From the NCBI GenBank assembly GCA_963675665.1, contig OY776510.1, forward strand, positions 3,968,001 through 4,032,000: a stretch of DNA of 64,000 nucleotides, in the 5' to 3' direction. Numbering within the stretch: the stretch's first letter is position 1; every line of letters begins with the position of its first letter. This DNA is from Spirochaetia bacterium (lineage in GTDB: Bacteria > Spirochaetota > Spirochaetia > UBA9216). Position numbers and translations under genes: made by a program. The notes under the pieces were generated by a model. That model saw only the letters and a program-made list of their open reading frames with translations, did not search any database and was not told where the DNA came from. Shown in pieces: positions 39,050-58,654 of this stretch.

Positions 39050-39526
39050 TTAATTGAAATCTCCGAGAGCCTGTAACTCTTTTGGATCAAAAAGCCTGCT
39101 TATATCAAGAATAATCAGGTATCCGTCGTTTTCTTTAACTACACCCTGAATATACTCCGTGCCGATACCCGATATCATCTGCGGCGGAGGCTGGATTTCA
39201 GATTGCTCTATAGTCATTACCCTGGAAACTTTATCGATGTAGACACCGATAAACCTGTCATTAATTTTGATAATCATAAAACCGCTGAGCATCTGATCTT
39301 CTTCGCTCAAATCAGCCTTGCGCAGATGAAACCGCTTATGCAGGCTGATAATAGGGATTATATTCCCTCTGAGATTGAAAATACCCTCGACGTATGCAGG
39401 AGCGTTCGGGATTGTTCTGATTTCCCTGACCTTCTGAATCTCCTTAACATTCATTATATCTATACCGTACAGCTCTTCACCCAGTTGAAATGTAACCAGT
39501 TGAAGTTGTTCATCATGGTCTGCCAT
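39050..39526 (-). CDS. cheW: Chemotaxis coupling protein CheW
   Basis: QLVTFQLGEELYGIDI..VKEI, IPNAPAYVEGIFNLRGNIIPII; start refined to ATG 39526. Confidence 0.95.
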   Translation of the reverse strand: MADHDEQLQLVTFQLGEELYGIDIMNVKEIQKVREIRTIPNAPAYVEGIFNLRGNIIPIISLHKRFHLRKADLSEEDQMLSGFMIIKINDRFIGVYIDKVSRVMTIEQSEIQPPPQMISGIGTEYIQGVVKENDGYLIILDISRLFDPKELQALGDFN

Positions 39527-39661
39527 GCCGCCTCCTGTCTGATAAATAACTCTATTATAATACAATATTATCGAAAAACATCAATGATATAATTCTACTA
39601 ATCTTGCTTCTCGATTGCAACTGAAAAAGCTGATTACCGCCTTGGTAAACGTGGATAAACG

Positions 39662-41800
39662 TTATCTATCTCTTGACGGGCTGTCTTCAACCCATTCCAT
39701 CAGAGTTTTCATTTCTTCAGTATCAGCGGCACGGGCAGCCTCATTTCGGGTCATGTCAAGATAATCAAATTTCCCGGCCAATTCAGGATTGATTTCCCTG
39801 AGTTTGCTGTAATTTTTATTAACAAAACCATAATTCTCAAGTTCATGGTGCGTGCGCGCCAAGCCGAGAAGAACAGCCGGGCTGGAAGGGTTCAGGGCTT
39901 CCGCTTTCCCGTAATAGGATAGAGCGTCTGCCGGTCGCTTTTTTACCAGCATAATATTTCCTGCATTTATAAGAGCGGGAAGATATTCCGAATCAAAAGA
40001 TAAAATTTTCAAAAAATTATATTCTGCCTTATCAGTTAATCCGTAACGCGCATAAAGAGTTCCCAGACTATTAAGCAGCCTTGAGGACTCACCTTCCGAT
40101 GCAATTCTTTCTTCTATTTTATTCACTTTGGGATAAATTTCACTTTCAACAACAGTCTGAAATTCTTTTCCATATGCTTCTTTAACAATTTCGTCATCAG
40201 GTACTGTTATCTGGCCGGCCTGCCCGGGAATTCCAACCGGTTCAAAAACCCGCCATGCTTCATGAGTCGGATAAAGCCTGGCCTCGCCTTCGAACTCAGC
40301 TTCACGCCACTGCCTGCCCCCTTTCTTCCATGCGGAATAAAAACCTCCGGCAAGTTCGGTAATCTCATAAGGAACCCATACAGTGCCGTTGCTGACTATA
40401 AAATCATCACGGCTGCTAAAAACAGCTTCCGCTTCATCCGGGCTTACCCCTGCTTCAAAGGCGATGTAGATATGTCCGGGAACTGTGATAAACGCGGTTT
40501 CGATACCCACTGATTCAAAAAGAGCACAATTCAGAATTGACAGATCATCACAGTCGCCTGCCCGGTATTGCAGAGTCTGCCGGGGGAATTGCAGAAAATC
40601 CAGAACCATTGCGTCTTCAAATGACGGGTTTTGAGTTTCCGGATCTGTGACATAACTTATTCCGTACAATCTCATTATCTCGTTAAGAGCTATTGCGGTT
40701 CTTATGTTCTGACTGATAACTCCGCTGCCGTTCTCACGGGCTATTCCTGCAGCGGTCTTTGCCATGGTCAGAACAACCGGTTCTTTGGAAGTGACAAAAG
40801 CGGCAACCTTTCGATCATCATCCCAGATCGTTGCATTTCTGTTATATATCCTTACCGTTTCGATATACGTTTCCTGATACTCCAGACCGTCGAAATCATA
40901 GTTAAGTACAAGCTCTGCAGAAACCTTTGTCCCCTCGGTGATCTCCAGGATATTATCAGTAAACAGGGCAAAGAGCTCGACCGGTTCTTCTCCCCCCGGT
41001 TCAAGTAATTTAAGCGTGCTGCAGGTCTTGGGATTATCCATATATTTTTTAATAAACAGATTCAGACTGATATTTTCAATCGGTATATCAGTATTATTCG
41101 TCATAATTCCGGATCCGATTGAATGGTCGTCATAATAAGTATAAAATACCGGGAAAATATCAGTAATATTAAAATCATTCAGTACGAGTCTGTTTGATTC
41201 CGCCGCCTGCTGAAGCGGCACAGGTTCGCAGATCACAGGCCCTGATGATTTATCCGTACCTTTTATTTTGATTATTCCAGCCAGAGAAACTGCCGCGCCC
41301 TGATATAAGCCCATATAATTTTTATAACTTCCTTCCAGTCCCAGACTGAACCCGGAGTTAAAAGAAAATATCGTCCCAACGACAGGTTTTATAAACGGGT
41401 TTCCTCCGCCCGGTCCTGTACCGTTATTCAGCATACTGTAAAAATATCCTCCGCAGACTCCGAGATATACCGACAGCCATGAAGCCGGGTCAAGCAGAAT
41501 ACCTGCTTCAGGACCGACAGAAATGGCCGAAACCGCAGTATTCAGCTCAACCGGCAGATAATCATATCCCGCACGAAAACCCGAATAAAGCATCGGAACC
41601 GATCGGAATTTATATTTCATGACCACATCGCATCCAGCCCCTGCTGAAAAGAAATCCGTGTTGTCTTTCCCCAGGGGAAAACCGTATCCCGGGAAAATAC
41701 CGATAGACAGTGACGGTTCAATACTGTCGTCCGCCGGGACTTCTGACAAAACAATGCTGAACATTAAAAGAATAAGCGGCAAGATTTTTTTGATATTCAT
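39662..41800 (-). CDS. Exported beta-barrel-like / transglutaminase-like (GDCDD) / TPR protein, paralog 1
   Basis: Signal peptide; about 150 aa of Gly/aromatic amphipathic strands; FPRQTLQYRAGDCDDL, PGHIY, WVPYEIT; C-terminal TPRs. Confidence 0.75.
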   Translation of the reverse strand: MNIKKILPLILLMFSIVLSEVPADDSIEPSLSIGIFPGYGFPLGKDNTDFFSAGAGCDVVMKYKFRSVPMLYSGFRAGYDYLPVELNTAVSAISVGPEAGILLDPASWLSVYLGVCGGYFYSMLNNGTGPGGGNPFIKPVVGTIFSFNSGFSLGLEGSYKNYMGLYQGAAVSLAGIIKIKGTDKSSGPVICEPVPLQQAAESNRLVLNDFNITDIFPVFYTYYDDHSIGSGIMTNNTDIPIENISLNLFIKKYMDNPKTCSTLKLLEPGGEEPVELFALFTDNILEITEGTKVSAELVLNYDFDGLEYQETYIETVRIYNRNATIWDDDRKVAAFVTSKEPVVLTMAKTAAGIARENGSGVISQNIRTAIALNEIMRLYGISYVTDPETQNPSFEDAMVLDFLQFPRQTLQYRAGDCDDLSILNCALFESVGIETAFITVPGHIYIAFEAGVSPDEAEAVFSSRDDFIVSNGTVWVPYEITELAGGFYSAWKKGGRQWREAEFEGEARLYPTHEAWRVFEPVGIPGQAGQITVPDDEIVKEAYGKEFQTVVESEIYPKVNKIEERIASEGESSRLLNSLGTLYARYGLTDKAEYNFLKILSFDSEYLPALINAGNIMLVKKRPADALSYYGKAEALNPSSPAVLLGLARTHHELENYGFVNKNYSKLREINPELAGKFDYLDMTRNEAARAADTEEMKTLMEWVEDSPSRDR

Positions 41801-41824
41801 CTTTATTTATAACCCCTTAGTTGT

Positions 41825-43465
41825 TCAATTGTCTTTCTCACAGGCGCCCATAGACCATCCTCCGGCATTATCATTTGCCGGATCGTTGTCCGGACCGGCT
41901 GCAAGATTGGTCCGTGTTAAACCGTCGAAATCAGTTTCGAATCCCCAGCCGGAAAGTGAGCCGTCCAAACCTCCCTGCCTGACCTCTGCCGGTGAATCGG
42001 CCTTCAGATGCCAGTCGTTATCATTCATGGTTGAAAAATCATTGTCTGTCCCGTCAGGGTCAATGAGCAGAGGATCAGCATCCCAGTTCCCGCCGGCATA
42101 CCCCAGCAAATCTATATCGCCAAGTGTATCGATATCAGCTTCCCCGAAGGTATGGTAAAATATTGTATTACCTTCGATATCATGGAAATCATTATTATGA
42201 ATTGACTGGGCATTACCGTTGTTTGAGGTTGATTCGTATATACAGTATCCGCCTGAAACAGCAACTGAAAAAAGAATATTATTTTCGATAATCGGAGTAG
42301 ATTCATTCTGCAATGAAATTGCGGCACTCCAGTCACTTTCGCCTCCGGCTATAGTATTATTATAGACAGCTGCTGCACCTGAATTACAGATAATTCCAAA
42401 AGAGTCTCCTGATCCTGAAGCCTTGCCGCCAAAAATTATATTATTATATATTTTTGTTCCGTTTTCCGTATCGCTGATAATTCCCGTTGCGGCTCCATCA
42501 ACTGTACGACCGCCGTCAATAACGTTATTCTTTATTTCATTATAAAATCCCTGGTTCTTAACCGCGCAGGCTTCAGATTCTGCAGAACCTCCGAAAATGT
42601 AATTTCCTTCTACAGTCATCCGGGAATCTGTTCCACAGACTACAGCGAACGTCTTTGTCCCGACACCCCCGTCAATATTGTTATCGGTTATTGTTACATT
42701 GGAGCCCTCCTGAACAAGAACTCCGTTATTGCTGCTTCCTGATGTCCCTCCGGTAATAATATTTTCCTGAATTACGGGTAAAGAGTCTCTTGAAATAAAA
42801 ATACCTATATTAATAACAGTAGAAGAACCGCCGTAAATCTCATTTCTCCCTATTAAAGGTCTTGCTGCATCCACGGAAGAAACTGCTGCTGCAATTCCGC
42901 CGGCACTACCTGCATAGATAAAATTATTGGTAACAGTCGGAGATGAAGAAACTATATACAATGCCGTTGAAAGATCTCCGCTTCCGCCCTTTATAACAAA
43001 TCCGTCAAGGATTGTATTTTCAGTAACTCCTGACGGAACTGTAACGGCCTGATTTGTATCGCCTGCAATACCTCCGGAATCGCTCAGATCAATAATTACA
43101 GTAGAATTATTGACAGTATCCCTTGTAATAAAATCCGAAGAATACCCACCGTATAGTGAAACGCCTTCTTTTACAACAATATTATGCCCTTCCCTGTAAT
43201 TAACCTCATAAAGCCCAACAGCAACATAGACTTCCACCGTTTCGGCCAACCCGTCAGCAATATAGCCATAAGCTTTATCTATCCCGGCCTGTATGGTTTT
43301 AAGAGGTTCAGTTTTAACGCCCCGGTTCAAATCATTACCGGAATCAATGCTTACGTAGATAATATTTTCGAAACCCGTCATTCTTTCGATGTATGTCCGC
43401 AGGGCTATATCGCTGCATGAAAACAAAAGACATATAAAAAATAATACTGAAAACTTTCTCAACAT
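41825..43465 (-). CDS. Surface lipoprotein with right-handed beta-helix (pectin-lyase-like) repeats
   Basis: LLFSC lipobox; IYVS..GND...G....PLKTIQ (DUF1565-like); many NxIxGG repeats; DWHL..DSP...DFDG..R...MGA.E choice-of-anchor-Q-like end. Confidence 0.78.
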   Translation of the reverse strand: MLRKFSVLFFICLLFSCSDIALRTYIERMTGFENIIYVSIDSGNDLNRGVKTEPLKTIQAGIDKAYGYIADGLAETVEVYVAVGLYEVNYREGHNIVVKEGVSLYGGYSSDFITRDTVNNSTVIIDLSDSGGIAGDTNQAVTVPSGVTENTILDGFVIKGGSGDLSTALYIVSSSPTVTNNFIYAGSAGGIAAAVSSVDAARPLIGRNEIYGGSSTVINIGIFISRDSLPVIQENIITGGTSGSSNNGVLVQEGSNVTITDNNIDGGVGTKTFAVVCGTDSRMTVEGNYIFGGSAESEACAVKNQGFYNEIKNNVIDGGRTVDGAATGIISDTENGTKIYNNIIFGGKASGSGDSFGIICNSGAAAVYNNTIAGGESDWSAAISLQNESTPIIENNILFSVAVSGGYCIYESTSNNGNAQSIHNNDFHDIEGNTIFYHTFGEADIDTLGDIDLLGYAGGNWDADPLLIDPDGTDNDFSTMNDNDWHLKADSPAEVRQGGLDGSLSGWGFETDFDGLTRTNLAAGPDNDPANDNAGGWSMGACEKDN

Positions 43466-43664
43466 TTTAAATTTCCTGAAACCCGTTACAATAAAAACTG
43501 CTGGCTTACACGAATGTCTGACGGTAGAAAATCACGGATTTTTAATACTTTATTTAACGATAATACATTATGATGCTACATGAATCGTTTGGCAAGTATT
43601 ATATCTTTATCTGATAAGCACTAACGGGAAAAATATTTTCATGCCGGTATTATCCTGTCAAAAA

Positions 43665-44315
43665 TCAACCGTATAAAGCCATTTTTTCAGCAACATGTTT
43701 CCTGAGTACGGGGTCAACTTCATAATCAGAAAGATCTTTAAGATAGCCTTTTCGTACAGGGTCTCCGCTTCGGCTGCATATCATTTTCAGAATCTTTACG
43801 CAATCCTTGCGGTCAACAACGCTTGTATCAAGAACTATATCAAACAAATCCACATGATTCGGGGTAAAATAAAAGTTACTCTCAATGAATTTCTTTCTCA
43901 GGCGATCATCTTTCTTAATTATGGTCCCGGCTTCTTCCCGGCTGATTCCCAGCCTTCCGGCTTCGTTTGCTGCGCGAATATTAAACGGAGACTGGATTTT
44001 AACATGAATTACATTATTGAACTCATGCAAAATTCCATAACTTCCCCTTCCGGCGATAACGACATTATCATGCTGTGCTACTGCTATAATGATTTCTGTA
44101 AGAAATTTAACCGTTGTATGATGATATTCGTCCATTCTGTCCCAGAAATGAGAAACAGAATTATAGATATCGTCAAGTTTAATGATACCGTAATCCTTTA
44201 TAATATCCGCAATTCTGTCTTTGTCTATGTACTGGAATCCCGTTTCTTCGGCAAGACTGCGACCGATATATTCGCCGCCGCTGCCGAGCGACCTTGAAAT
44301 AGTTACTACACTCAT
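43665..44315 (-). CDS. Cytidylate kinase-like family protein
   Basis: VVTISRSLGSGG, VIAGRGS, DD..R..F, FDIVLDT. Confidence 0.82.
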   Translation of the reverse strand: MSVVTISRSLGSGGEYIGRSLAEETGFQYIDKDRIADIIKDYGIIKLDDIYNSVSHFWDRMDEYHHTTVKFLTEIIIAVAQHDNVVIAGRGSYGILHEFNNVIHVKIQSPFNIRAANEAGRLGISREEAGTIIKKDDRLRKKFIESNFYFTPNHVDLFDIVLDTSVVDRKDCVKILKMICSRSGDPVRKGYLKDLSDYEVDPVLRKHVAEKMALYG

Positions 44316-44711
44316 GCTGTCCTCCTCAAAATAAAATTAATTCGGGAGACATAATTGTGCCTATGTAAAATATAATTACAGACAGATCTTAAATCAAATA
44401 ATTTAGATACACGTTTTAATTCCCTCTGTTGCCGGAAAGACTATTCTCCACAAGACGCTTAACATAGGTTTCCAGTTTTATATTAATTAAATTATCCTCC
44501 AGAAAAAATAGTTCATAAACAAGTGCCATGGATCTTACTCTGCCCTGGCCTAAGCCATGAAAAATACTTATCAGTTGTTTTACAAAAAATCGGGCTGAAG
44601 CATGTTCACATCACCTTTATTGATATCGCCAGAAAATCAATTGGTATTGCTGCTTTATCTTTAACCATCATAAATACCAGCCGGAATATTATTCCGCGTT
44701 AAGTTCTGCAT

Positions 44712-46463
44712 TCAACTTGTTCGTCTGTCAAGAACCAGGTTGCTTCCCTTTGTTTTTTTTGCATATTTCTTGAGCTCTCCGCATCGCCCGGAAACTTCAA
44801 GAAAATGGGACATATGAACTTTCCCGGTTATAACGCCGGCCATGCTGAACGCCATAATCGGGAATTTCATAATTTGTCCTTCCCTGTTTTTTTCTTCAAT
44901 ATATCCGTCATCCAGATGAATCTTACTGTAAAAGTTCCTGATTCCGTTATCAAAAAGACGGCAAATTTCATCGGCTGCGTTATGTACTGCCTCAGAAGGC
45001 ACTATAAAAATAAAATCATCGCCGCCTATATGCCCGCAGAAAGTGTTTTTTGACGGATAATGCGTCACAACTTTCTTAAGAATTCCGGCGGTAAAATGGA
45101 TAACCTCATCTCCTTTGGAAAAACCGTAAGTATCGTTATATGCTTTAAAGTTATCCAGATCGCCGTATACTATGGCTGTTCCTGCGTTCTCATTCAGGAC
45201 TTCCTGGATCTTTTTATTTATAACCCTGTTTCCCGGCAGTTTTGTCAACGGGTTTGCATCGAGGGCCCTGATCCTGAGGTTGTTTATCCATAAAATAAGA
45301 TATAAAAAGACTGAAAAATTGATAAAGAGAATGAAAAATATTAAAACGAGCGAATTTATATATGGAGCAAATGCCCTGGTATCATTTATCTCCATAATAT
45401 ATCCGAAATCCAGTTCTTCAATCCAGAACCCGGCCCCGATTACTCTTGAATTCAGATAGTTTCTGTACGTTTTTCCAAAGCCTGTAAGTCCGTCCGGCTT
45501 TTCTGATATCAAAGTATTTATTATCATGATATTTGATTGCTCCGGAAACCCTTCAATTTTTGTATATTTTAAAGGATTGATTACAGGAATTGTCTGGTAA
45601 TTTCCCGACCATCCTGCCGCTCTGAGCTTTTCAGAATATTCACTGCCGGAGGATAGCTCTGTTACAGGTTTACCCTCTTTATCTATCAGATAGCGATGTA
45701 CATTCTTAAACAATGAATAGATATCATCATTTGCATTAACCGAACGATCAGGTCCCGAAACCATTCCGCTTTCCGTCAGATTTCCGGTAATCATACCCAG
45801 CCGCGCTTCAGTAGCTATATACCCGCAGTTTTCTCCTGCGTCATCCCTTATCTCAATAAAAAAGTAGATAACCGGCTCCATAAAAGAAACTGTTTCGCTC
45901 AGCCGCATGTTTTCCAGCACAAAAAATAATCCGAAGCCTTTTTGATCAATTACCGTTTCCTTCAGTTTCTCAAAACTGGAAAATTCCCTGTAAAGTTTCT
46001 CCGGAATGGTTCCGGCTATAAGTATTCCATCGTTTGAAATAAACTGGACCGGCATGTTATTAACTCCCGGAGGAAGAGCTCCAGGTATTTCTGAATCTCC
46101 TGCGAACGGCTTTTCAGGAGGCTCATTTAAAGGTCTGTTTATATCGGAAGGAAAAATCCCGGTATTTTTATAACTTTCATAATATTCAAGATATTCGGAA
46201 AACTGGTTATAAAATCCGGGCAGTTCAGTCAGGGTTACCATATGGTCTCTGTAGCTGCTGTTTATATTGTCCAGCGCATTGCAGATATTTAAATATTCCT
46301 GTTGGTAATAGTGATAAAGATTTTTATCACTGGTTCTTTTCAGAAAAATAAACGAAAGAATAATAAAAAACAGGAAAAGGATCGATGCACTGAGAATAAA
46401 ACGCAAAACGAGCTTTCCAGGCCTGACGTCCTTATCATTAATAAACAGGCTTTCCAGTAGCAT
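44712..46463 (-). CDS. Membrane-bound diguanylate cyclase (2 TM, periplasmic sensor, GGDEF)
   Basis: DANPLTKLPGN, DLDNFKAYNDTYGF..GD and GHIGGDDF; two TMs flank a large Cache-like region. Confidence 0.88.
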   Translation of the reverse strand: MLLESLFINDKDVRPGKLVLRFILSASILFLFFIILSFIFLKRTSDKNLYHYYQQEYLNICNALDNINSSYRDHMVTLTELPGFYNQFSEYLEYYESYKNTGIFPSDINRPLNEPPEKPFAGDSEIPGALPPGVNNMPVQFISNDGILIAGTIPEKLYREFSSFEKLKETVIDQKGFGLFFVLENMRLSETVSFMEPVIYFFIEIRDDAGENCGYIATEARLGMITGNLTESGMVSGPDRSVNANDDIYSLFKNVHRYLIDKEGKPVTELSSGSEYSEKLRAAGWSGNYQTIPVINPLKYTKIEGFPEQSNIMIINTLISEKPDGLTGFGKTYRNYLNSRVIGAGFWIEELDFGYIMEINDTRAFAPYINSLVLIFFILFINFSVFLYLILWINNLRIRALDANPLTKLPGNRVINKKIQEVLNENAGTAIVYGDLDNFKAYNDTYGFSKGDEVIHFTAGILKKVVTHYPSKNTFCGHIGGDDFIFIVPSEAVHNAADEICRLFDNGIRNFYSKIHLDDGYIEEKNREGQIMKFPIMAFSMAGVITGKVHMSHFLEVSGRCGELKKYAKKTKGSNLVLDRRTS

Positions 46464-46602
46464 AACCAAATGTTAATATATCCATCCCTTGTTTTCAAAT
46501 TCAGATGCCTGAATTTATAAATTAAAATAGAACAATTCCCCTTCCTGCCCAATTTTCCTGTAAAACCGTGACATTAATCAAATATAGGTATATTCTCATA
46601 AC

Positions 46603-48786: not shown

Positions 48787-48789
48787 TTC

Positions 48790-50061
48790 CTATGACTGCA
48801 ATACGAATTTTTCCAGATTCAAATCCGCCGCAAGAATAAAAGCTTCACCTCTGCAGAAAAACTTCACTGAAACAGTAAGGCAAAGATGATTTGAAGCTGA
48901 TGATACATATATGCCTGAAATATATGAATTTTCGCCGTCGATAATATGTCTGCAGTAAGATCGTGTACTTCGGTCTGCGCCCTTTCCGCTGTTATCAATC
49001 ATATTAATAAAATCAGGGTGTACAACATTATTATCAATTTGCTGCCCCCTGCCGTTCATTACATACAGCAGTTCTATAAAATTATATTTATTAAAACAAT
49101 TTTTCAGATAATCATTAAAATTAATCCTGCAATCTGAAAGATCCTTTGCTATTTCTTCTACGGATTTAACAGCTTCATCATGCCAGTCAAGCCTAACCTC
49201 ACCCATATTTTCCAGAATATCCTTTACAACATTGTGTAATTGCTCAGACTGTTGATGTACCTGCCCTATCTGAAATGCGGATTTTTCAGCGCCTTCCAGT
49301 ATCATTTCAGCCGATCTTTCCTGAAGTTCGTTTCTTTTAACCAGAGATTCAACAAGCACGCTTATTTCATCAGATTCATTTTTTATATTTTCATTATGCG
49401 ACTCAATATCAGAAAAAACTTCATATATATAACCGGCCTCGTTTTTGCTTTTCTTTAACGACTCCGATGAATCAACAAATAATTTCTGAACGTCTTCTGA
49501 AGCCGACGTGAAATTGTTAACAATTTTTTCTACTTTTTTTGCCTAAAGCTCCGTTTCCTGCGCAAGAGCTTTCATTTCCCTTGCAATCACTCCGAAACCG
49601 GCCCCGTAAGCCCCCTGCCTTGCGGCTTCAATTGCACCGTTAATTGACAGAACATCCAGTCTTCCGGACAGATCTTTAATAATATTGGTCATTTTATTTA
49701 TTTCTTCCGATTTATTTTTAAATTCGCTGATAAATAATCTTCCCTTTTCAATCGATTCGGAAAGTCCGTTTATTTCACCCAGATAAGTTTTCTGTCTTTC
49801 AATTCCGGCCTTTGACGCATTATCCGCCTGATTTGAAGTCTGTTTCAGTCCTGTTGCTTTCTCAAGTATTTTATTTACCTCTGAAAGAGCATCGCTGTTT
49901 TCTTTCTGGACTTTTGAGGTCTGACCAGTCTGACTGTTAATATTTGTATTCAGAATTTCAACATTTTCACTTAAGGTAAATGCGCTTTCTGAGACTTTTA
50001 CCATTTGCCTGATTATATTCTTAAAAATATTGTTCTTTTTATCAACCGTTTCCATTTTCAA
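48790..50061 (-). pseudogene. Soluble methyl-accepting chemotaxis protein with C-terminal PDC/Cache-like domain, interrupted by one in-frame TAG
   Basis: LSINGAIEAARQGAYGAGFGVIAREMKALA hairpin. After the TAG at 49543-49545 the same frame stays open for 61 codons and joins ORF 48790-49359 (DRSTRSY, YISGIYVSSAS, LAADL). Confidence 0.8.
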
Positions 50062-50256
50062 TAACCCCGATTCAGTAAATATTTTTTCAGAACACTCCGG
50101 AATCCCCAGTTTTTACACCGCAGCTGAAACGTTCATGGAACTTTTTGTATTTTAATTTTATTGACCTTTAAGAAACATTCAAGGCTTTTCAGGAAATATT
50201 TTTATACAATATCTCTTTTAATCATGATAATATAATTCATCATAAAGAAATAATAT

Positions 50257-51494
50257 ATGAATGTGATTTCAGTTTTGACCATTTCCGCTGCCATTCTGTA
50301 CCTGTACTTTACCATCATGGTTATCCGGACAACAATATTTTCGGTGTCCAAATGGCTGCTTGCGGCATGTTCGTTCTGCCTTATGTACTGGGCATTTCTG
50401 GCATATTTCACCTACAATGCCTCGGATTTAAAACATATCCGTCTTCTTTTTCAGATTTCTTCAAGCGGTTTAATACTGTTCTTACCCCTGCAGAACCTGT
50501 TTTTAAAATCCCTCCACGGCAGGATAACCATTCCCCATATCCTGACTGTAAGCCTGCCGGCGCTGATATTCATCATAAGAAACACCTGCTGGGACGTAAC
50601 CTTCTCGGATTTCTATCTTGAAAACGGGCAATGGCTATTCGTAAAAGCCGAAGGCGTATGGAACCTCTTATGGAGCTTTTATATGCCGGCGATGGTTGCG
50701 GCGGGAAATATGTTCCTTCTGCTCTGGTACAGGAAAACCACTCTTAACCGGGAAAAGAAGCAGATAAGACTGCTTATAATATCCTCGACTATAACACTGA
50801 TACTTTCAGTAGCGGAATACTTGTTTCATCCGTTCTTTTCCGATCTATGGACAGTATCCATCTCGCCTGTCCTTTTCGTCCCCTGGGTTTACGGATTTGT
50901 ATTGGCGATTAAAAGATACCAGCTTTTTAACATAGTTATTGAGGATGTCACCCGGCGTATACTTGAATCCATCGATGAGCTTGTAGTTCTGGTGGGCTCT
51001 GATGGAAAACCGGTTTATTTCAACAGGAAAGCAGACGAATTTTTTCGTGAAACAGACAACAACATAAGAAAAGGCAATTTCAGTATTCTTATACCAAAAA
51101 CCGTTGGATCCAAAACCATAACACAGGTAGAAATCAATAAACTTCCCTTAAAAAAAATCTTGTGCTGTCGCCTGTAAAACCGGACAGGAGCATCCAATCT
51201 CTTAACGTTGAAATAACGTCCGTGAAGGATAAATTTGAAGACCCGCTCGGCTATCTTATTATCGGCGCTGAAGCCGAACCGTCCGGAAGCATGTACCGTA
51301 AGTTCAAACTCTCACAGCGGGAAGCCGATGTTGCAAGCGGACTTTTAAATGGTCTCAGAACACAGGCCATCGCCGAATCGTTGGGAATATCTGAACGTAC
51401 CGTAAAAGCCCATATAAGCAATATCTTTAAAAAAACGGGCGTATCAAGCAGGGTTGAGTTTATTTCAATGTTCTTTGAGGAGAAAAGACAGTAA
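50257..51494 (+). pseudogene. 7TM sensor - PAS - LuxR HTH one-component regulator, split by a -1 frameshift in an A8 tract
   Basis: ORF 50257-51177 has 7 TMs and a PAS start (ILESIDELVVLV...YFNRKA). ORF 51162-51494 has the PAS end and LSQREADVA...IAESLGISERTVKAHISNIFKK. One extra A at 51150-51157 fuses them into 412 aa. Confidence 0.78.
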
Positions 51495-51568
51495 CCGGGC
51501 AGGCGTTCCAGGCTTACCTTAAACTCCAACCGAGCAAACCATAAAAAAAATTAAAAAAAATCTTTTTC

Positions 51569-51612
51569 TAGTACCTTCGTACGATGTTGAATTTCTCCGG
51601 CGGGGATATAAT
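51569..51612 (+). promoter_or_regulatory. Candidate activator box and -10 element upstream of the 51643 gene
   Basis: Imperfect palindrome TAGTAC-CTTC-GTACGA (51569-51584) and a perfect TATAAT (51607-51612), with no consensus -35 at 17-bp spacing. Confidence 0.45.
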
Positions 51613-51642
51613 TTTCACAATAAGTGTATCCGGAGGAATGAT

Positions 51643-53709
51643 ATGTTCAAAAAGTTGATAATAACCATACTTATCTTATACCTGCTGATCACAGCATCTA
51701 TAAGTTCCGATCCTGAGAATCAGCTTGGTATAAGTATTACACCGCACGGAGCAATTCCCGTCGGCTCGAGCATTGAACTGTTCGGGTTCGGATACGGCGC
51801 CGACGCGTCTGTCTCATTCATTCCCGGATTTTTACAGTATATCGGAGCACAGGCGGGATTTACCTATACAAACCAGCCGCTTTCTTCAGCTAATTCCATA
51901 AACGTTATCCAGGGATGGGCAGGTCCCGTGGCGCGATACCCCTTCACCGAACGCCTGTCGGTATATGCCGCAGGCAAAGCAGGCTATTACTACTGGGCCC
52001 CGCTTGCCTGGGATGCCGAAGGCGTCAACGGAGGAGGTTTTACCGCAGGAGGCGGCGCCGGCGCGCTGTTTCGAATTACCGGACCGCTTACCCTTGGAGC
52101 AAATGTATCCTATGAATACCTTAACAAACTGTATAACGGTATAAGCGTCAACCTTGCAGTTAATTTCGATTTTCCGGGACTTAAAAGTGAAAGTATCGAT
52201 GTCGAGATAGATGATATCAGGATAATTCCGTTGTTCCCGGTCCTCTACGGTTACTATTCAAACCATCCCATAGGCACTGTAAAGGTCAGGAACACCGGAA
52301 ACCGTGCAGAGAAAGATATCAACATCCAGTTTTACCTGGAACGGTACATGGACAACCCGATGAAGGTCGGGTCGAACTTTGATCTTGCCCCGGGCGAAGA
52401 AAAAGATATTGATTTATTTGCGCTGTTCACCGAAGACCTGATGCAGATAACCGAGGGGACCAAAGCTTCGGCCCTGATCTCAGCTACAAAAACCGTCGGC
52501 GAAAAGGAGATAACGAAGGACTTTACCGGCGTAATCGACTTCTATAACAGAAATGCCCTGTCATGGACCGACAACCGCCGTATCGCATCCTTCATGACGG
52601 CGAAAGATCCGGAAATCATGAATTTTTCGAAGAATGTTATGACCTGGGTAAAGTCTTCACAGAACCCGGCAATCGACGAGAACCTTCAGAAAGCCATGGC
52701 GATGTTTGAGGCGCTGAAAAACCGCGGGGTAAGCTACGAGGTGGACCCGGCTACCCCTTTCCGTGAGTTTTCCGAAGAATCTGCGTCAATCGACTTTCTG
52801 CAGTTTCCCCGGCAGACGCTTCAGTACACAAACGGCGACTGTGACGACCTTACCACCCTGTATTGTACCCTGCTTGAGTCGGTCGGCGTTGAAACAGCCT
52901 TTATAACGGTCCCCGGTCACATCTACGCAGCTTTTACACTGAAGATGGGCCCTGATGAAGCGCAAAAAACTTTTCTGAATCCGGATGAACTTATACTAAC
53001 CGAAAGCAGGGCGTGGGTACCTGTCGAAATCACCATGTTTCAGGAAAGCTTCGAGCGGGCATGGGCCTACGGAGCGAAAGAATGGCGTCAGTACGATGCC
53101 GAAGAACTATCGGTACTGTATCCGGTCCGTGAAGCATGGCAAACCTTTCAGGCAGTCGGGTTCCGCGACTCATCAACCGTTGAACTGCCCGACAGACCCG
53201 AAGTGACAACGGCATTCATGAACAGCATTAACCGTCATGTCGATCGCGAAATCCACCCGCAGATTGAGCAGATCCGGAAGAAGATTGACGAGGGCGGCAG
53301 AGCAAAAACCCGATGGCAGAACAAACTCGGCGTAGTCTACGCGCGTTACGGTCTCTACGATAAAGCGTCTGAAGCCTTTGAAACGGTTCTGCAGGACGAA
53401 GAATACATTCCCGCGCTGAACAACCTCGGCGGTATATACTTTCTTAAGGAAAAATACGAAAAAGCACTCGAATACTACGACCGCGCGCTGCAGCAGGACG
53501 ACAGCAGCAAAGCAGCGCTGCTGGGCACAGCCCGCTGCAGCCATGAGCTTGAGAACTACTACCTTGTAAAGAAAACATACGCCAGATTAGCCGAACTCGA
53601 TTCTCAGCTGGCGGAACAGTATGCATACCTTGACATGAAGGGAGCCGAAGCCACCCGCGCCGCAGCCGCCGAAGAAATGAAATACCGAATCCTTTGGGAG
53701 GATGAATAA
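51643..53709 (+). CDS. Exported beta-barrel-like / transglutaminase-like (GDCDD) / TPR protein, paralog 2
   Basis: GGAGG RBS; signal peptide; OMP-like strands; FPRQTLQYTNGDCDDL, PGHIY, WVPVEIT; TPRs; colinear with 39662-41800. Confidence 0.78.
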   Translation: MFKKLIITILILYLLITASISSDPENQLGISITPHGAIPVGSSIELFGFGYGADASVSFIPGFLQYIGAQAGFTYTNQPLSSANSINVIQGWAGPVARYPFTERLSVYAAGKAGYYYWAPLAWDAEGVNGGGFTAGGGAGALFRITGPLTLGANVSYEYLNKLYNGISVNLAVNFDFPGLKSESIDVEIDDIRIIPLFPVLYGYYSNHPIGTVKVRNTGNRAEKDINIQFYLERYMDNPMKVGSNFDLAPGEEKDIDLFALFTEDLMQITEGTKASALISATKTVGEKEITKDFTGVIDFYNRNALSWTDNRRIASFMTAKDPEIMNFSKNVMTWVKSSQNPAIDENLQKAMAMFEALKNRGVSYEVDPATPFREFSEESASIDFLQFPRQTLQYTNGDCDDLTTLYCTLLESVGVETAFITVPGHIYAAFTLKMGPDEAQKTFLNPDELILTESRAWVPVEITMFQESFERAWAYGAKEWRQYDAEELSVLYPVREAWQTFQAVGFRDSSTVELPDRPEVTTAFMNSINRHVDREIHPQIEQIRKKIDEGGRAKTRWQNKLGVVYARYGLYDKASEAFETVLQDEEYIPALNNLGGIYFLKEKYEKALEYYDRALQQDDSSKAALLGTARCSHELENYYLVKKTYARLAELDSQLAEQYAYLDMKGAEATRAAAAEEMKYRILWEDE

Positions 53710-53731
53710 AATGCGCTTCGCACTTTTTATT

Positions 53732-53766
53732 GTGAAGTATGAAAAGCAGAGCTTTTCATACTTCAC
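53732..53766. repeat. Perfect 16-bp inverted repeat (GAAG...CTTC family)
   Basis: GTGAAGTATGAAAAGC-AGA-GCTTTTCATACTTCAC. Confidence 0.8.
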
Positions 53767-54189
53767 CGCATTATAACGCCGCCAAAACGTAAAACGGAGG
53801 AGATATGAAAATCAGTAAAAAAACAACAGCAGTTATTTTGATTATTATAGCCGCGCTGGCGGCAACAGCCTGTACGATTGAGTCGGAGTATGTAACGGCC
53901 TTAAAAGAGAAAATTGAAAATGATCTGAATCCGCCTGATACATCTGTTAAATTTCAGCTTACAATTATCGCCGGCTCCGGCGGCAAAATACTTTCCCCCA
54001 ATATTTCCCCTTTGGAGGTTAAAAAAGACGATCCGACTTCCATAGAAGCACAAGCCGATTCGGGATATCTTTTTGGATATTGGGCAATAACTTCTGGTGA
54101 AGCAGTTATTGATGATTATCTAAAGGCAAATACTTCAGTTATTCTCAGCATTGGAGATGCAACAATTCAGGCTATATTCACGGATATTA

Positions 54190-55010
54190 ATGCACCTGAG
54201 CCGCCGGTTGTCAGCGGTGAGAATAAAACAAACGACACAACCCCTACCTGGACATGGATCAGTTCCGATGAAGATGGAATCGGGGTTTTCAGATATAAGC
54301 TTGATGACAGTATTATGACTACAGGAGCAACGGAAACTACAGAAACTGCCTTTACACCTTCTTCTTTTTTAGTTGAAGGAAACCATACATTATTTGTTCA
54401 GGAGAAAGACGGTTTCGATAACTGGTCCAATATCGGCAGCCATACGATAGAGATTGATATTACTCCTCCGGAGAGCCCGGTATTCCATGTATCAAATTAT
54501 TCAAAAACTTCATCGCAACAACCCTCATGGACCTGGACCAATGGAAACGGAGACGGTATCAGGATCTATAGATTTAAACTGGACAACAGTGATCTCAGTG
54601 ATATTCCTGAAATAGATGAAACAACAGCTACAAGTTATACACCGGTAGAAAATCTCCCCGAAGGGGATCATACACTCTATGTGCAGGAGAAAGATAGTGT
54701 CGATAACTGGTCTGAATCAGCTTCCCATTCTATTGAAGTCGACATTACCGGTCCTTCGGCTCCCACGGTAACATCAGCATCTTCAAGTTGGGACATGACT
54801 CCTTCATGGAGCTGGACCAGTACTGCTTTAGACGGAAGCGGTACATACAGGTACAGGCTTGATAATAGTAACCTTGAAGATCAGGTTGGGGAGGCATCAA
54901 CATCATATACCAGCAGTGCACTCGGTAATGGAACACACCGTCTTTATGTTCAGGAAAAGGATGATGTAGGCAACTGGGGTACAATAGGCGATTACGCAGT
55001 TTCTGTCAGC
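54190..55010 (+). repeat. Three tandem ~90-95-aa Ig-like protein repeats (approximate limits)
   Basis: Each unit carries PxWxW, Y(R/K)xxLD and GxHxL(F/Y)VQEKDxxxNW. Confidence 0.75.
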
Positions 55011-55184
55011 TGGAGTCCCCCGTCGTTGGTAACCCCTGCGAATGCCGGAGATTCTTATTGTGTTGAAGTCGACCTTGACTGGAATAATGTAACCAATGCA
55101 TCAGGTTATTACATACAGGTGGATAATGATCCTGACTTTAATAGTCCGTATAACTGGACAACTACGTAAGCGGTAATTCTTCCC

Positions 55185-56717
55185 CTATGACTTTATCTGT
55201 TCAGCGGTCAGGTTGAACGGTAGCAGTTTTTCATAATCTGCGGGTTCTTCACAGTACGGTAACTTGCGAAAAACATAGTAGAAGTAATCATAGACCGATA
55301 GCTTCTGCAATTTAGCAGATTCAACAAGACTGTAGAGTACCGCCGAAGATTCGGCTCCATGTTCGGTGTCGGAAAACAACCAGTTCTTCCGTCCGATTAC
55401 AAACGGCCGGATTGCATTTTCAGCAATGTTGTTCGACGGAGTAAGCAGCGGATCTTCCAGGTATAACTTTAACTGAACCCAGTTATCAAGCGTGTATGAT
55501 ATCGCCTTCCCGAAAGCCATTGTAGGCGGAGTCCCTGCTGCATGTTTAGTAAGCTGTTTGAATAAAGAATCAAGGATAGATCCGGCCTGGTTGGCTCGAT
55601 GCTTCTGAAAGCCTTTTTTGGAATATTGCTCGCGCAGGGCTTCAAGCTCGAACAGGTCTTTAATCAATTCAAGTATATGTTTTACTTCCGGAGATTTAGA
55701 CATCTCCCAGTATTTATAAAAATACCTTCTGGCATGCGCCCAACATAAAACATGACGAGGTCCATCATGTCCATCTTTTCGCAGCCTTTTCAAAGCAGTG
55801 TGATAGGCCTCATAATCATCAGTCTGCAACCAACCGGTATAACCTTGCAGAAAATCATACGGTATTTCATGAGAACGGCCTGTTTCATACTGAAACACTA
55901 CCGATTTTTTATCAGGTTTTCCGCCAAGAAAGACCCACATCCAGGATTTATCCTGTGCTTTGCGACCTTTTTCTTTCAAAACCTGTACCCGGGTTTCATC
56001 GGCATTTATTATCGGCCCGTTTTTAATATTATCTTTAAGCAACTCATAAATCGGTCTGCATTTATCAGCGCACTTTATTGCCAATGTGCTCAGTGTTGCC
56101 CTTGGAATATCTGCACCAATTGTATTCAGTCTCTTGCTCTGACGGTAGAACGGGAGAGCATATTCAAACTTCTCATTTATGATCCACGCGAGAAGGCTTT
56201 CATCGGCAATGCTCCCGGCGATCAGATGTTTAATCCCTTCAGCAGTCTGCACCCCCGAAGTTTCATCGGTGGTTCCTTCACAATTTCTGCAAACATATTT
56301 TTTCTTTATCTCACGCCTGACTACTACTTTCGCAGGAACTATGCATAGCCGTTCGGAGACATCTTCACCAATACAAATCTTCTCAGTTCCGCAAGCGCAT
56401 GTTTTATCTTCCTCATCAATATCGTATTCAATAATTTCTCGGGGAAGATCTTCTGACAGAGCTTTTCTACCGACACCCTTACGAACAGTTTTCGTGTGAG
56501 CTTTTACTTCACGGGTCTCAGTTTCTATTTCTTCGTTCTGCTCAAATGCCGTATCCTCTGCCTCGTTGAAAAGTGACGCCTGTTTTTTATCTTCATTCGT
56601 GAGCTTCTCTGATTTTGTTCCGAAATGAAGAGATTGCAAAAGCTGGACCTGCTCTTCTAATCGGGCAATTTTTATTTTTAATTTCTCATTCTCTTCAAGC
56701 AAAGCCTGGCTGTTCAT
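55185..56717 (-). CDS. tnpC: IS66 DDE transposase TnpC
   Basis: Leucine zipper and FGTKSE, zinc finger, LPFYRQ, ADET, LQTD.Y..Y, CWAHARR, SNNIAENAIR...GRKNWLF. Confidence 0.95.
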   Translation of the reverse strand: MNSQALLEENEKLKIKIARLEEQVQLLQSLHFGTKSEKLTNEDKKQASLFNEAEDTAFEQNEEIETETREVKAHTKTVRKGVGRKALSEDLPREIIEYDIDEEDKTCACGTEKICIGEDVSERLCIVPAKVVVRREIKKKYVCRNCEGTTDETSGVQTAEGIKHLIAGSIADESLLAWIINEKFEYALPFYRQSKRLNTIGADIPRATLSTLAIKCADKCRPIYELLKDNIKNGPIINADETRVQVLKEKGRKAQDKSWMWVFLGGKPDKKSVVFQYETGRSHEIPYDFLQGYTGWLQTDDYEAYHTALKRLRKDGHDGPRHVLCWAHARRYFYKYWEMSKSPEVKHILELIKDLFELEALREQYSKKGFQKHRANQAGSILDSLFKQLTKHAAGTPPTMAFGKAISYTLDNWVQLKLYLEDPLLTPSNNIAENAIRPFVIGRKNWLFSDTEHGAESSAVLYSLVESAKLQKLSVYDYFYYVFRKLPYCEEPADYEKLLPFNLTAEQIKS

Positions 56718-56755
56718 AAATAAATTTTAACATGATTAAATTCCGGTGTGAAGCA

Positions 56756-57100
56756 TTAAACGCGGGAATATGATAATTCTTTATGCGCGTTGAAGAAATC
56801 TATCCCGTCCAGCAGCATCTTAAGTTCCTCGAATCTGATTTCTCTGGCCTCTTCTTCTGTTTCAGGCCAGGGAAACTTGTTCTTCTCCAACCGTTTCTGC
56901 CATAGGCAGAATCCGTTTCGATCCCAGTAGACAATTTTCAAAAGTTTTTGTTGGCCGTTACAGAACAGAAACAAACTTTTCGAAAACGGGTCATTATGCA
57001 TTACGTTCTGAATCTGAAGGCTCAATCCGTTTACCCCTTTTCTTAAATCCGTTTTGCCGGGCCGTATAAAATATCGGTAATCTGTATAATCGAAAATCAT
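56756..57100 (-). CDS. tnpB: IS66 accessory protein TnpB
   Basis: TDLRKGVNGL, LKIVYWDRNGFCLWQKRLE..FPWP, LLDG. Confidence 0.93.
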   Translation of the reverse strand: MIFDYTDYRYFIRPGKTDLRKGVNGLSLQIQNVMHNDPFSKSLFLFCNGQQKLLKIVYWDRNGFCLWQKRLEKNKFPWPETEEEAREIRFEELKMLLDGIDFFNAHKELSYSRV

Positions 57101-57393
57101 TCAAGTTCTCCGATTATTCTCAGAACTGATTTCAGCTCGGCTTCATCAAACCCGGCAGTTATTGATATTAAAAACTTTTTGGACTTCAATACAATTGGTG
57201 CAGCTGCTACAGATTGAACGGGTTTTATTTCTATTATCTCTGAGCTCTTTGACAGGTTCATACCGAACCGTTTTCTGTGCTTATAGAAAGTATTTGGATG
57301 AATTTCAATCTCTTTGCAAAACTCCGGAATTGATTTTCCGCTCATCTGTTGTTGTTCAAATATTTCTTCCCAGTTTTTGATTATCTTCTTCAT
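57097..57393 (-). CDS. tnpA: IS66 accessory protein TnpA (HTH)
   Basis: W......SGKSIPEFC...I...TFY.HRKR; ATGA overlap with tnpB; start probably ATG 57393. Confidence 0.8.
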   Translation of the reverse strand: MKKIIKNWEEIFEQQQMSGKSIPEFCKEIEIHPNTFYKHRKRFGMNLSKSSEIIEIKPVQSVAAAPIVLKSKKFLISITAGFDEAELKSVLRIIGELE

Positions 57394-58294
57394 TTCATTC
57401 CTCCGTGATTCTTTTCCCGGAGGATAGTACATTTTCAGATTTTCGCAAGAAGGAAAGAATTACCGCTTACACAACTACAGCATCAGAATATGAATCCAGT
57501 ACAAGGCTGACCCCGGATGAAACATACTACTGGCACGTCCGCGCAAGGAATCCTGAAGGAGATTACAGCGCGTACAGCAGCCGCTGGAGTTTTTATGTAG
57601 ATCACAAAGATGACTGGTTGTTTTCTACAGGCCCTAGCGGCGGTGTTGTTATTTACGATGATGAAAATATAACGGAGATGCAGGACTTTTATATAAATTA
57701 TTTGGGTATGACCTCTGTTGATTTCAAAACTTTGCCGGGAGATTACCGCTACATAGAAATAGCTCCGGCTGATGCGTCATCAGATGCCATATTCAACAGT
57801 ATATATAGACCAACTTTTAATCAAACAACATCTACAGATATTGGAACAGGTCAGGCAAACTGCGATTCATTATGGGTAACGGACGGGGCTATCAATATAG
57901 CGGAGTCATTTTCCTGCTCCTACGATGGAAAGACTTATAGTGACTGGTTTCTGCCGTCATTGGATACTATGGAACTGGCCTGCTACTTATTGAATTCATT
58001 TCCGGTGGATAATATCGATGAATCTGTTTATTGGACATCCTCCTACGAAGCTTTACCTGTAGTGGGCGCTTATACAATAGCGTTTAAAGCTATTTCCGTC
58101 TCCGGCTATTCTTACTCGTTAGGTGACATCCTTCTGGCTCCTGAAACAGGCCCTCCGTCCGGAGAACCGAATATTGCAGTTCTGACGGGTCGCATGTTTT
58201 AACAGTTCCGCAGCCTTTCCATACCTGCAAAACTATCTTGTTCCGGAAGAATCTGCTGCGTCTCTGCAGTTTGACGTAGGTAAACATCCAAATG

Positions 58295-58544: not shown

Positions 58545-58553
<9 letters not shown>
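58295..58553. repeat. Hairpin array bounded by a 22-bp duplication that includes the 5S rRNA 3' end
   Basis: TAAAATAAAAAAAGCCTGGCGA at 58321-58342 and 58532-58553, with at least five inverted repeats between or adjacent. Confidence 0.8.

Positions 58554-58654
<101 letters not shown>

Follow-up and report, generated by a model that had tools for sequence, protein, structure and literature searches.

We analyzed a 64,000-nucleotide stretch of the genome of a Spirochaetia bacterium (contig OY776510.1, positions 3,968,001 to 4,032,000), hereafter the window, whose own numbering is used throughout. Two modules were found, each pairing a multidomain enzyme with a lipoprotein. Enzyme A (P0001, 712 aa) is encoded at 39662..41800 on the minus strand and enzyme B (P0002, 688 aa) at 51643..53709 on the plus strand; a first-pass annotation had given the same coordinates and was also correct about the gaps to the co-oriented lipoprotein genes, 24 bp in module A and 95 bp in module B. 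Gene order differs between the modules, the lipoprotein A gene standing upstream of enzyme A and enzyme B preceding its lipoprotein. Both enzymes comprise a signal peptide, an 8-stranded barrel, an Ig domain, a transglutaminase-fold core, and tetratricopeptide repeats (TPRs), the domain order of enzyme A being carried over from the structure model of its paralog P0002 (pLDDT 91). A scan for promoters and terminators remained at chance level (17 versus 12.0 ± 3.5; 6 versus 7.8).

P0001 and P0002 are colinear paralogs (256/687 identities, 37%; E 3e-138), and the nine motifs that the annotation had listed are all present in their pairwise alignment. The locus had also been described as a duplicated module; the paralogy holds, but a local duplication does not, as the genome contains seven paralogs, P0001 and P0002 included, and these two lie apart in the tree. 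In the core, P0002 shares 59% identity with a paralog elsewhere in the genome but only 41% with P0001. A recent local duplication as the origin of the pair is thus ruled out by the core identities and tree positions. Next to cheW, module A is missing from the corresponding site in four of five congeners (one of them on a short contig), and in the fifth an enzyme fragment lies about 6 kb away, at the end of a contig.

We then looked at the architecture of enzyme B. After the signal peptide, eight amphipathic antiparallel strands with alternating hydropathy, as in OmpA-type barrels, make up a predicted outer membrane barrel of the OmpA/NspA type (aa 27 to 177; 51721..52173, plus strand). The model superimposes on NspA (1p4t; Z 17.4, rmsd 3.0, 149 aligned residues), and some enzyme homologues match PF13505, which agrees with the N-terminal membrane barrel suggested by the first-pass annotation. 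Inward-facing positions, picked by alternation, are ∼31% Gly and ∼19% Ser, and conserved residues group in the predicted extracellular loops (P39, G41, F47, P79, Y157, and L163). Two to four tandem barrels occur in 8/266 homologues. The barrel is followed, on the same strand, by an Ig-like beta-sandwich (aa 187 to 300; 52201..52542), the core (aa 305 to 500; 52555..53142), and a TPR domain (aa 518 to 677) with a conserved tail, in which Arg672 and Trp685 are invariant (53194..53709). With the barrel as predicted, established barrel rules would place the Ig, core, and TPR domains in the periplasm.

The core of enzyme B carries Cys400 (codon 52840-52842, plus strand), flanked by Asp399 and Asp401, together with His426 (52918-52920) and Glu462 (53026-53028); by alignment, the corresponding residues of enzyme A are Cys417, His443, and Glu479. 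Neither set of aligned homologues shows any variation in the Cys, His, or Glu (125/125 and 97/97), and the acidic flank is nearly invariant (Asp399 in 123/125, Asp401 in 121/125, and Asp402 in 124/125). PF01841 was matched by 60 of 61 cores at E ≤ 0.05 (best 3e-6), and the modeled core resembles BDI_1141 (Z 10.6), PNGase (8.9), TG2 (8.8), and LapG (4fgo; Z 8.8, rmsd 3.5, 143 aligned). When profiles were compared with solved structures, the core alone gave three weak transglutaminase-like matches (E 0.07 to 0.15; LapG 4u65, E 0.15), and the full-length profile had only TPR proteins among the 60 matches listed. Alignment and model together place the core in the transglutaminase-like superfamily (PF01841 clan), with a putative Cys-His-acid triad. 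The LapG-like catalytic center proposed earlier is consistent with the fold match, the motif spacing, and the invariant triad.

Lipoprotein A (P0003, 546 aa; 41825..43465, minus strand) has its lipobox cysteine at position 17, an amphipathic helix directly behind it (aa 17 to 33 with the cysteine; 43367..43417, minus strand), and a right-handed beta-helix that matches PF13229; the first-pass annotation had also named a beta-helix. The 5' part of lipoprotein B (P0004; 53805..55165, plus strand) likewise has a lipobox cysteine (Cys23) and a helix (aa 23 to 42 with the cysteine; 53871..53930, plus strand), followed by an InlB B-repeat (PF18998) and Big_13 repeats. Its 3' part (57479..58202, plus strand), an fn3/Ig-like stretch and a C-terminus that weakly matches the Lcl adhesin (NF046116, E 0.012), is in frame with the 5' part, the two giving 694 codons and a stop when counted by hand. 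Between the parts lies an IS66 element (tnpA, tnpB, and tnpC; 55166..57470, minus strand), absent from the first-pass annotation, with its 8-bp target duplication at 55158-55165 and 57471-57478. The genome holds six copies at ≥99.8% identity; the insertion is recent, and lipoprotein B is currently broken. No joint across IS66 was present among the contigs of four sequencing runs.

The two lipoproteins had been regarded as unrelated, which is true of their passenger domains (no BLASTP match, best E 8.6) but not of their N-termini. An N-capped amphipathic helix directly behind the lipid cysteine is common to otherwise unrelated partner lipoproteins. This helix tag had been overlooked in the first reading. 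Scored with a profile of tags from other genomes, the partners of this genome ranked 1, 2, 3, 4, 5, 7, 8, and 10 among its 251 lipoproteins, with lipoprotein B second and lipoprotein A tenth. Tags have a median hydrophobic moment of 0.50 versus 0.32 and carry Asn or Asp at +3 in 38/67 cases, versus 29/251 other lipoproteins; Gln is not enriched in the tag region (31/67 versus 117/251). The cysteine-to-helix distance ranges between about 3 and 11 residues. Elsewhere in the genome, three partners arranged in tandem carry tags that are nearly identical, with synonymous changes in their codons, and their signal peptides and passengers are unrelated. Similarly, the P0002 clade has eight members whose partner is visible, and all of these share one tag subtype over passengers that differ. 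At the level of sequence, the tag therefore follows the enzyme clade while passenger domains are swapped. Where beta-helix homologues occur outside the cassette, Gly/Ser-rich tethers take the place of the helix. Tag-bearing orphans with no paralog nearby also exist in this genome (ranks 6, 12, 16, 19, and 28 of 251).

The first-pass annotation had proposed that an unchanging enzyme is paired with lipoproteins that vary and had suggested a check for lipoprotein enrichment beside homologues. When this check was run, 80/102 barrel-type homologues had an adjacent co-oriented lipoprotein and 22/102 had none under the filter used, compared with 2/12 barrel-less forms and a background of 8 to 15% (345/4264 genes of the same genome and 22/151 secreted-looking genes of similar size); neighboring homologues are kin, and these counts overstate independence. 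An earlier count, made on fewer loci and under a stricter lipobox filter, had given 48/70 and 6/25, but its "no barrel" class contained divergent barrels, and the later values are used instead. In the reverse test, 3/5 genomes with a lipoprotein A homologue have the enzyme directly upstream. The partner start usually overlaps the last codons of the enzyme (44 cases with gaps of −13, −16, and −4), and the partner lies upstream of the enzyme in 13 cases. Among 49 partners scanned, we found Ig, InlB-B, propeller, FGE-sulfatase, Lcl_C, beta-helix, and LamG domains, seven partners being without a match. Adjacency and domain diversity thus bear out the proposal. A FecR-like label given to the ∼300-aa neighbors of one clade was dropped, since the two that were tested matched Pfam TPR or nothing.

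This two-gene cassette is carried by many free-living spirochaetes. Its spread is patchy (36/301 Spirochaetota), with up to 10 matches per genome, and the family comprises 1245 clusters at 50% identity (E ≤ 1e-30), annotated in databases only as "TPR protein" or hypothetical. The openly accessible literature searched contained no description of this architecture, and the cassette seems to be unstudied. In the barrel-less forms, the enzyme part is fused to WD40, LamG, or TPR domains; those that also lack a partner retain 123/125 conserved Ig-core-TPR positions.

We propose that each cassette would encode a dedicated enzyme-partner pair, and we consider it very probable that the two are physically and functionally linked via the tag. 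The enzyme would be held in the outer membrane by its predicted barrel with the remaining domains facing the periplasm, and the partner would present the observed helix behind its lipid cysteine and, beyond it, the exchangeable stalk and binding domains that we found. Binding of the tag by the enzyme may then lead to proteolysis, in which the Cys-His-Glu center, probably calcium assisted by analogy with LapG, would cut the partner near its anchor and thereby govern how an adhesin-like protein is released, turned over, or quality controlled. We give this LapG-like, tag-directed proteolysis a probability of roughly 45%. Recognition of the tag is weakly suggested by modeling: the predicted enzyme-tag complex scored 0.44 (best control, 0.00; partner pLDDT 70 to 71), and contacts agreed to at least 95% between runs. 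The mark used is reached by 116/157 solved complexes and 2/215 mismatches, but scores at or below 0.60 account for only 18 of those 157 complexes and for both mismatches, and support from the complex is therefore weak. Neither did the prediction yield an interface, and hence it favors neither docking nor cleavage.

Several observations fit poorly with cleavage. No conserved cut site was found, the LapG-type motif [T/A/P]AAG occurring in just 3/89 partner N-termini. The passenger domains are of kinds typical for surface proteins and begin right behind the helix, leaving no linker to span the membrane; if the partner is exposed at the surface, an enzyme in the periplasm could thus reach it only before export. 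Moreover, since the periplasmic part is kept almost unchanged in forms with no partner, it shows no visible partner specificity, and the lipoprotein may dock on the enzyme protein instead of serving as its substrate. The helix of a surface lipoprotein would then dock on the outer barrel loops, its variable domains sensing or binding outside, and the enzyme would act on a shared substrate, be it itself, peptidoglycan, or another envelope protein. The clustering of conserved residues in the extracellular loops fits this idea, as do the loss of the barrel along with the partner, the barrel-less fusions, which resemble partner and enzyme in a single chain, the tandem barrels, odd for a passive anchor, and the Ig-core unit at the N-terminus of the anti-phage protein ProA (see below). 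Tag divergence also correlated slightly more with that of the barrel extracellular loops (partial r 0.146; 3/300 permutations) than with that of the catalytic core (0.112; 12/300), but the test disregards shared ancestry, and loops and tag both evolve fast. Multi-barrel forms showed no excess of partners in the loci examined, and a signal route through an 8-stranded barrel would be hypothetical. We regard docking as unlikely, though a serious contender.

Covalent anchoring is improbable in our judgment. The partner would form an acyl intermediate with the enzyme, resolved on an amine of peptidoglycan, lipid, or protein, with a chemistry like that of transglutaminases or sortases. Animal transglutaminases, including TG2 and TG3, align with the combined Ig and core domains, and the Asn/Asp preference at +3 could be read in this sense but equally fits a helix N-cap; the lack of Gln enrichment, a partner that is already lipid anchored, and a protease as the nearest characterized bacterial relative by motif argue against it. 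Slightly less credible still is linkage without interaction, according to which the enzyme has a general envelope function and is carried alongside surface-protein genes in accessory cassettes, while the helix serves only as a membrane-proximal spacer or as a sorting signal for general machinery. Tag-bearing orphans and the kinship that inflates the counts are compatible with it, yet the tag subtype tracks the enzyme clade as passengers and signal peptides change, the link persists through inversion of the gene order, and homologues outside the cassette lack the helix. Least probable is an export machine, in which the barrel protein, singly or as an oligomer, would move or flip its neighbor to the surface. 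The genetic linkage resembles that of Slam, the inward barrel face is rich in Gly and Ser, and pairs of dead and active paralogs, as in Treponema-like genomes, hint at dimers; however, the barrel is modeled with high confidence as 8-stranded and OmpA/NspA-like rather than as a 14-stranded, Slam-type channel, and export is therefore unlikely. An invariant catalytic triad would moreover be superfluous for export, and LptD has been reported, in the accounts cited below, as the route for such lipoproteins.

We tentatively, and rather against the odds, envisage a trans-outer-membrane module in which swappable surface lipoproteins plug into the 8-stranded barrel via a coevolving helix address tag and control, or are processed by, the barrel-fused periplasmic transglutaminase-fold enzyme, possibly as a dead/active heterodimer in some lineages. 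If so, the tag would be the first partner-specific signal to be defined for spirochaetal lipoproteins, and the family, with its more than one thousand distinct enzyme clusters, would be a modular platform for display or sensing. With a structured tag of ∼15 to 20 residues, its cognate membrane partner, and the catalytic Cys all defined here, binding, cleavage, and localization are directly testable by point mutants; if portable, the tag could be used to display or release lipoproteins.

Among known systems, LapG/LapA and DvhG/DvhA (PF06035; 4fgo and 4u65) share with the cassette a periplasmic-side transglutaminase-fold cysteine enzyme and, for LapG, an identical spacing of the Asp...Pro...Gly-Asp-Cys-x-Asp motif. 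LapG and DvhG are described as recognizing a hydrophobic targeting helix, comparable to that near the N-terminal anchor of our partners, and as needing acidic residues flanking the Cys, D316/E318 of DvhG being the comparison for Asp399/Asp401 (PMC13090378). This flank is the calcium-binding feature of bacterial transglutaminase-like cysteine proteases, which suggests that calcium may be bound here too. Unlike LapG, whose third triad residue is Asp, the enzyme has Glu (125/125) and is fused to an outer membrane barrel, an Ig domain, and TPRs, and the partner is a lipoprotein rather than a type I-secreted adhesin. PF06035 matched neither P0001, P0002, nor any of the 61 cores and, genome-wide, only an unrelated small open reading frame below the cutoff; the flanking genes scanned in the window included no LapD or type I secretion genes.

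The first-pass annotation had also invoked Slam (type XI secretion, DUF560), which resembles the cassette in that a TPR-bearing barrel protein is encoded beside a dedicated lipoprotein. As outlined in the source, Slam begins with a TPR domain, ends with a 14-stranded barrel, and lacks an enzyme domain, its cargo has a common 8-stranded barrel domain, and ∼52% of Slams adjoin lipoproteins (PMC5449769). The order here is reversed, the 8-stranded barrel coming first and the TPRs last, and the partners have only the N-terminal helix in common, none of the 49 matching a TbpB-like family at E ≤ 1e-5; the analogy, and export with it, is not supported. OmpA, NspA, and OmpX (PF13505) share the barrel fold (Z 16 to 17) and, for OmpA, an N-terminal barrel followed by a periplasmic domain, which in the cassette is an Ig-transglutaminase-TPR enzyme instead of a peptidoglycan-binding domain. 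ProA (NCBIfam NF058533), of the anti-phage system Prometheus, matches the Ig and core with its first ∼300 profile positions (E 1e-12), but at 46 bits versus a cutoff of 1500, the other ∼1600 positions being missing here; PADLOC gave no match, so a defense role rests solely on this partial match. PorP/SprF proteins of type IX secretion exist as many paralogs, with one barrel per cargo. Type B cargo is reported to bind its own PorP/SprF barrel for surface anchorage, much as we propose for the tag, but the signal there sits at the C-terminus of a cargo that is not a lipoprotein, and the barrel is noncatalytic (PMC9143113). Finally, surface lipoproteins of spirochaetes and Bacteroidota have been reported to use LptD (10.1101/2022.12.21.521298; 10.64898/2026.10.03.756453), and the known sorting signals of spirochaetal lipoproteins are described as disordered tethers read by general machinery (10.1101/2022.12.21.521298).

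The window holds two modules pairing an enzyme gene with a large lipoprotein gene; both ORFs, every motif listed for them and both intergenic gaps lie where the first-pass annotation had placed them. In module A, lipoprotein A (41825-43465, minus strand, 546 aa) is upstream of enzyme A (P0001; 39662-41800, minus strand, 712 aa), whereas in module B the lipoprotein (5' part, 53805-55165; 3' part, 57479-58202; plus strand) is downstream of enzyme B (P0002; 51643-53709, plus strand, 688 aa). The two enzymes are indeed paralogs (37% identity over 687 columns), but the idea of a locally duplicated pair did not hold: they are two of seven paralogs in this genome and not mutual nearest relatives, the core of P0002 being 59% identical to a paralog elsewhere versus 41% to P0001, in agreement with the tree. 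The lipoproteins, described as unrelated, show no BLASTP similarity to each other but have an N-terminal tag in common, an amphipathic helix right after the lipid Cys.

An IS66 element (55166-57470, by Pfam) interrupts lipoprotein B, and a 2305-base contig aligns exactly to the span of the element. The insertion is bordered by an 8-bp duplication, and the two lipoprotein parts share one reading frame (694 codons by manual count). Because six IS66 copies in the genome are at least 99.8% identical (six others are more distant, about 78%), we consider the insertion recent; the family looks active and recently broke lipoprotein B. Module B sits directly behind an rRNA operon (16S, a tRNA, 23S, and 5S; ∼58550-64000, minus strand; recognized by eye). 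Directly upstream of enzyme B, a membrane-protein ORF overlaps a short LuxR-type ORF (50257-51494, plus strand); together the two may represent a single sensor-regulator with a frameshift. At 48790-50061 (minus strand), two consecutive ORFs, the first with an MCP-signal domain (172 aa) and the second dCache-like (189 aa), look like the pieces of a single broken chemoreceptor-like gene. The site upstream of cheW (39050-39565; loci L175-L179) differs in gene content in each congener examined and is apparently an insertion hot spot.

Six of the seven paralogs in this genome directly adjoin a large co-oriented lipoprotein gene, and the seventh has a tagged partner upstream, past a transposase-like ORF identified by eye. 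Other genomes provided 79 loci from a scan of relatives and 80 regions chosen from whole-genome searches, long contigs being preferred; merging at 90% identity left 157 homologues. The barrel-type class (n = 128) was defined by N-terminal length or barrel score and includes two low-complexity N termini. With 17 partial genes excluded, 102/128 had enough flanking sequence on either side; 80 of the 102 have an adjacent co-oriented lipoprotein gene, versus 345/4264 genes in our own-genome background (22/151 for secreted-looking genes of 500 to 900 aa); this bears out the enrichment expected by the first-pass annotation, the counted loci being kin, skewed to relatives of P0002, so that we claim no p value. 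The lipoprotein is downstream in 72 cases and upstream in 13, and homologues with another N terminus have one in 2/12. Conversely, the enzyme gene is directly upstream in 3/5 genomes with a lipoprotein A homologue, the other two being a gene at a contig edge and a fragment. The family occurs in 36/301 Spirochaetota genomes and 22/41 relatives, its core matches 1245 clusters (50% identity, E ≤ 1e-30), and its members are labeled TPR or hypothetical protein in databases.

At enzyme 3' ends (e.g., own genome, 2498943-2498958), codons for a conserved terminal Trp and acidic residues overlap the partner start (gaps of -13 and -16), which suggests translational coupling; the Trp is retained also where no partner follows. 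One enzyme clade (L083, L085/L135, L142, and L154) faces a convergent operon that encodes, besides a lipoprotein with a tag subtype of its own, a large secreted protein of the vWA or PKD type. In divergent clades (L108, L121, L122, and L124-L128), the enzyme gene has beside it a gene for a secreted protein of ∼300 aa, a tagged lipoprotein being present in some cases and absent in others; two such proteins gave TPR or nothing in Pfam.

As anticipated for a constant enzyme with variable cargo, partner bodies vary freely: InlB B-repeats, Big_2/5/12/13, FG-GAP, RCC1, LVIVD, FGE-sulfatase, Lcl_C, LamG, fn3, beta-helix, and BNR and lactonase propellers were found (49 partners scanned, 7 without a match; own-genome partners scanned separately). 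Common to them is an N-cap after the lipid Cys and then the helix, whose hydrophobic stripe (i, i+1, i+4, i+8, often Ala at i+11) fits 75/89; the median hydrophobic moment is 0.50 versus 0.32. With a tag profile built exclusively on other genomes, close relatives among them, the partners in this genome rank 1, 2, 3, 4, 5, 7, 8, and 10 among 251 predicted lipoproteins, one further partner being missed by the lipobox filter. Three tandem partners elsewhere in the genome are almost identical over the 20 residues that follow the Cys but have unrelated signal peptides and passengers (the rest of the partner); the synonymous changes in these near-identical tags point to selection on the peptide. In the tree, the eight P0002-clade members whose partner is visible all have a single tag subtype on different passengers, a pattern to which shared ancestry contributes. 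In most beta-helix homologues lying outside the cassette, a Gly/Ser-rich tether takes the place of the helix. Five tag-like lipoproteins lack a nearby enzyme gene (own genome, 4564480, 4568935, 1096708, 3020524, and 191431) and are possibly served in trans.

We modeled P0002 with AlphaFold2 (97-sequence alignment, mean pLDDT of 91). The model comprises a signal helix, eight strands (aa 27 to 177), an Ig sandwich (187 to 300), an alpha/beta core (305 to 500), and TPRs (518 to 677). The membrane barrel postulated for the N terminus is predicted to be eight stranded and matches NspA (Z, 17.4; rmsd, 3.0; 149 aligned), OmpA, OmpW, and OprF; hydropathy alternates along its strands. In the three divergent own-genome paralogs, profile comparison alone indicates a related barrel (probability, 78%; E, 2e-5). 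When a barrel has an even number of strands and comes after a cleaved signal peptide, the domains behind it are periplasmic, as would be the Ig, core, and TPR domains here. The core modeled in isolation (pLDDT of 95) matches, with middling Z scores, the transglutaminase-fold proteins BDI_1141 (10.6), PNGase (8.9), TG2 (8.8), and LapG (8.8); PF01841 is weakly matched by 60/61 cores and PF06035 by 0/61. Cys400, His426, and Glu462 are invariant (125/125 and 97/97 aligned homologues), the Asp residues flanking the Cys are nearly so, and the core profile aligns to LapG (4u65; E, 0.15) with identical motif spacing. The family belongs to the transglutaminase-like superfamily and to the 8-stranded barrels. 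The Ig-plus-core unit (P0002, aa 183 to 515) resembles the N terminus of anti-phage ProA and unnamed Atlas clusters from other phyla (taxa from few members).

Seven paralogs from three genomes, forming one clade, wholly lack the triad, with an active copy immediately downstream of each (7/7; L090-L094, L101, and L102), which suggests that such pairs form dimers. A TPR match is absent from three of the active copies but present in their dead twins, which hints at a heterodimer whose subunits divide the functions. In 8/266 homologues, the barrel is present in two to four tandem copies (two or three in L026:7184-10198, L053:7959-10688, and L072:355-3090), and in L040 a papain (Peptidase_C1) and a lectin-like domain precede the barrel. 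WD40, LamG, or TPR replaces the barrel in L030, L048, L105-L107, L111, L169, and L172. Barrel-less forms, most of which fall within the barrel forms in the tree, have an intact triad and no partner; that they retain 123/125 conserved Ig-core-TPR positions argues against the partner as the enzyme's sole substrate.

The analysis demonstrates the invariant triad, the gene linkage, the tag, and, at the level of prediction, the architecture; we infer the periplasmic topology, tag binding, and any catalysis. The co-folded complex of enzyme B and its tag received a score of 0.44 (best control, 0.00), with at least 95% contact agreement between runs, a partner pLDDT of 70 to 71, and no interface given; the mark used is attained by 116/157 solved complexes and 2/215 mismatches, and at 0.60 or under by only 18/157 solved complexes plus both mismatches, so the model weakly supports binding. 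We favor, at a probability of about 0.45, that the enzyme would cleave its partner near the anchor, directed by the tag, because LapG/DvhG, the closest relative to have been characterized, has this motif with acidic residues on its flanks and makes use of a hydrophobic helix for targeting (PMC13090378). Against cleavage, no cut motif is conserved (the LapG-type motif occurs in only 3/89 partner N termini), and topology is a problem, since passengers look extracellular and no spanning linker separates them from the helix.

The tag might instead dock on the outer loops of the barrel, a tentative alternative that we think rather improbable. In favor of docking, these loops are conserved, the barrel-less fusions fit, and over 64 pairs, uncorrected for ancestry, the tag co-varies slightly more with them (partial r, 0.146; 3/300 permutations) than with the core (0.112; 12/300), the value for the TPRs being -0.09. 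Less likely than cleavage or docking are cross-linking of the partner by the enzyme, which is doubtful, and linkage of the genes without direct interaction, slightly more so. Least likely is export of the partner by the barrel protein: the Slam-like exporter of the first-pass annotation is disfavored by the predicted eight-stranded barrel, by the differing definition of Slam (PMC5449769), and by reports of LptD exporting surface lipoproteins (10.1101/2022.12.21.521298; 10.64898/2026.10.03.756453).

The cassette, whose lipoproteins carry a defined tag for putative recognition by the enzyme, is real and widespread, and it is apparently undescribed: a literature search, judged mostly from listings, returned nothing on it, nor did passages of a review (PMC7857515) contain anything specific to it. 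On membership tests, the cassette falls outside BTLCP/Lap and Slam, and the enzyme falls outside ProA. By analogy, the cassette may operate in the manner of LapG/LapA or of PorP/SprF and its type B cargo (PMC9143113).
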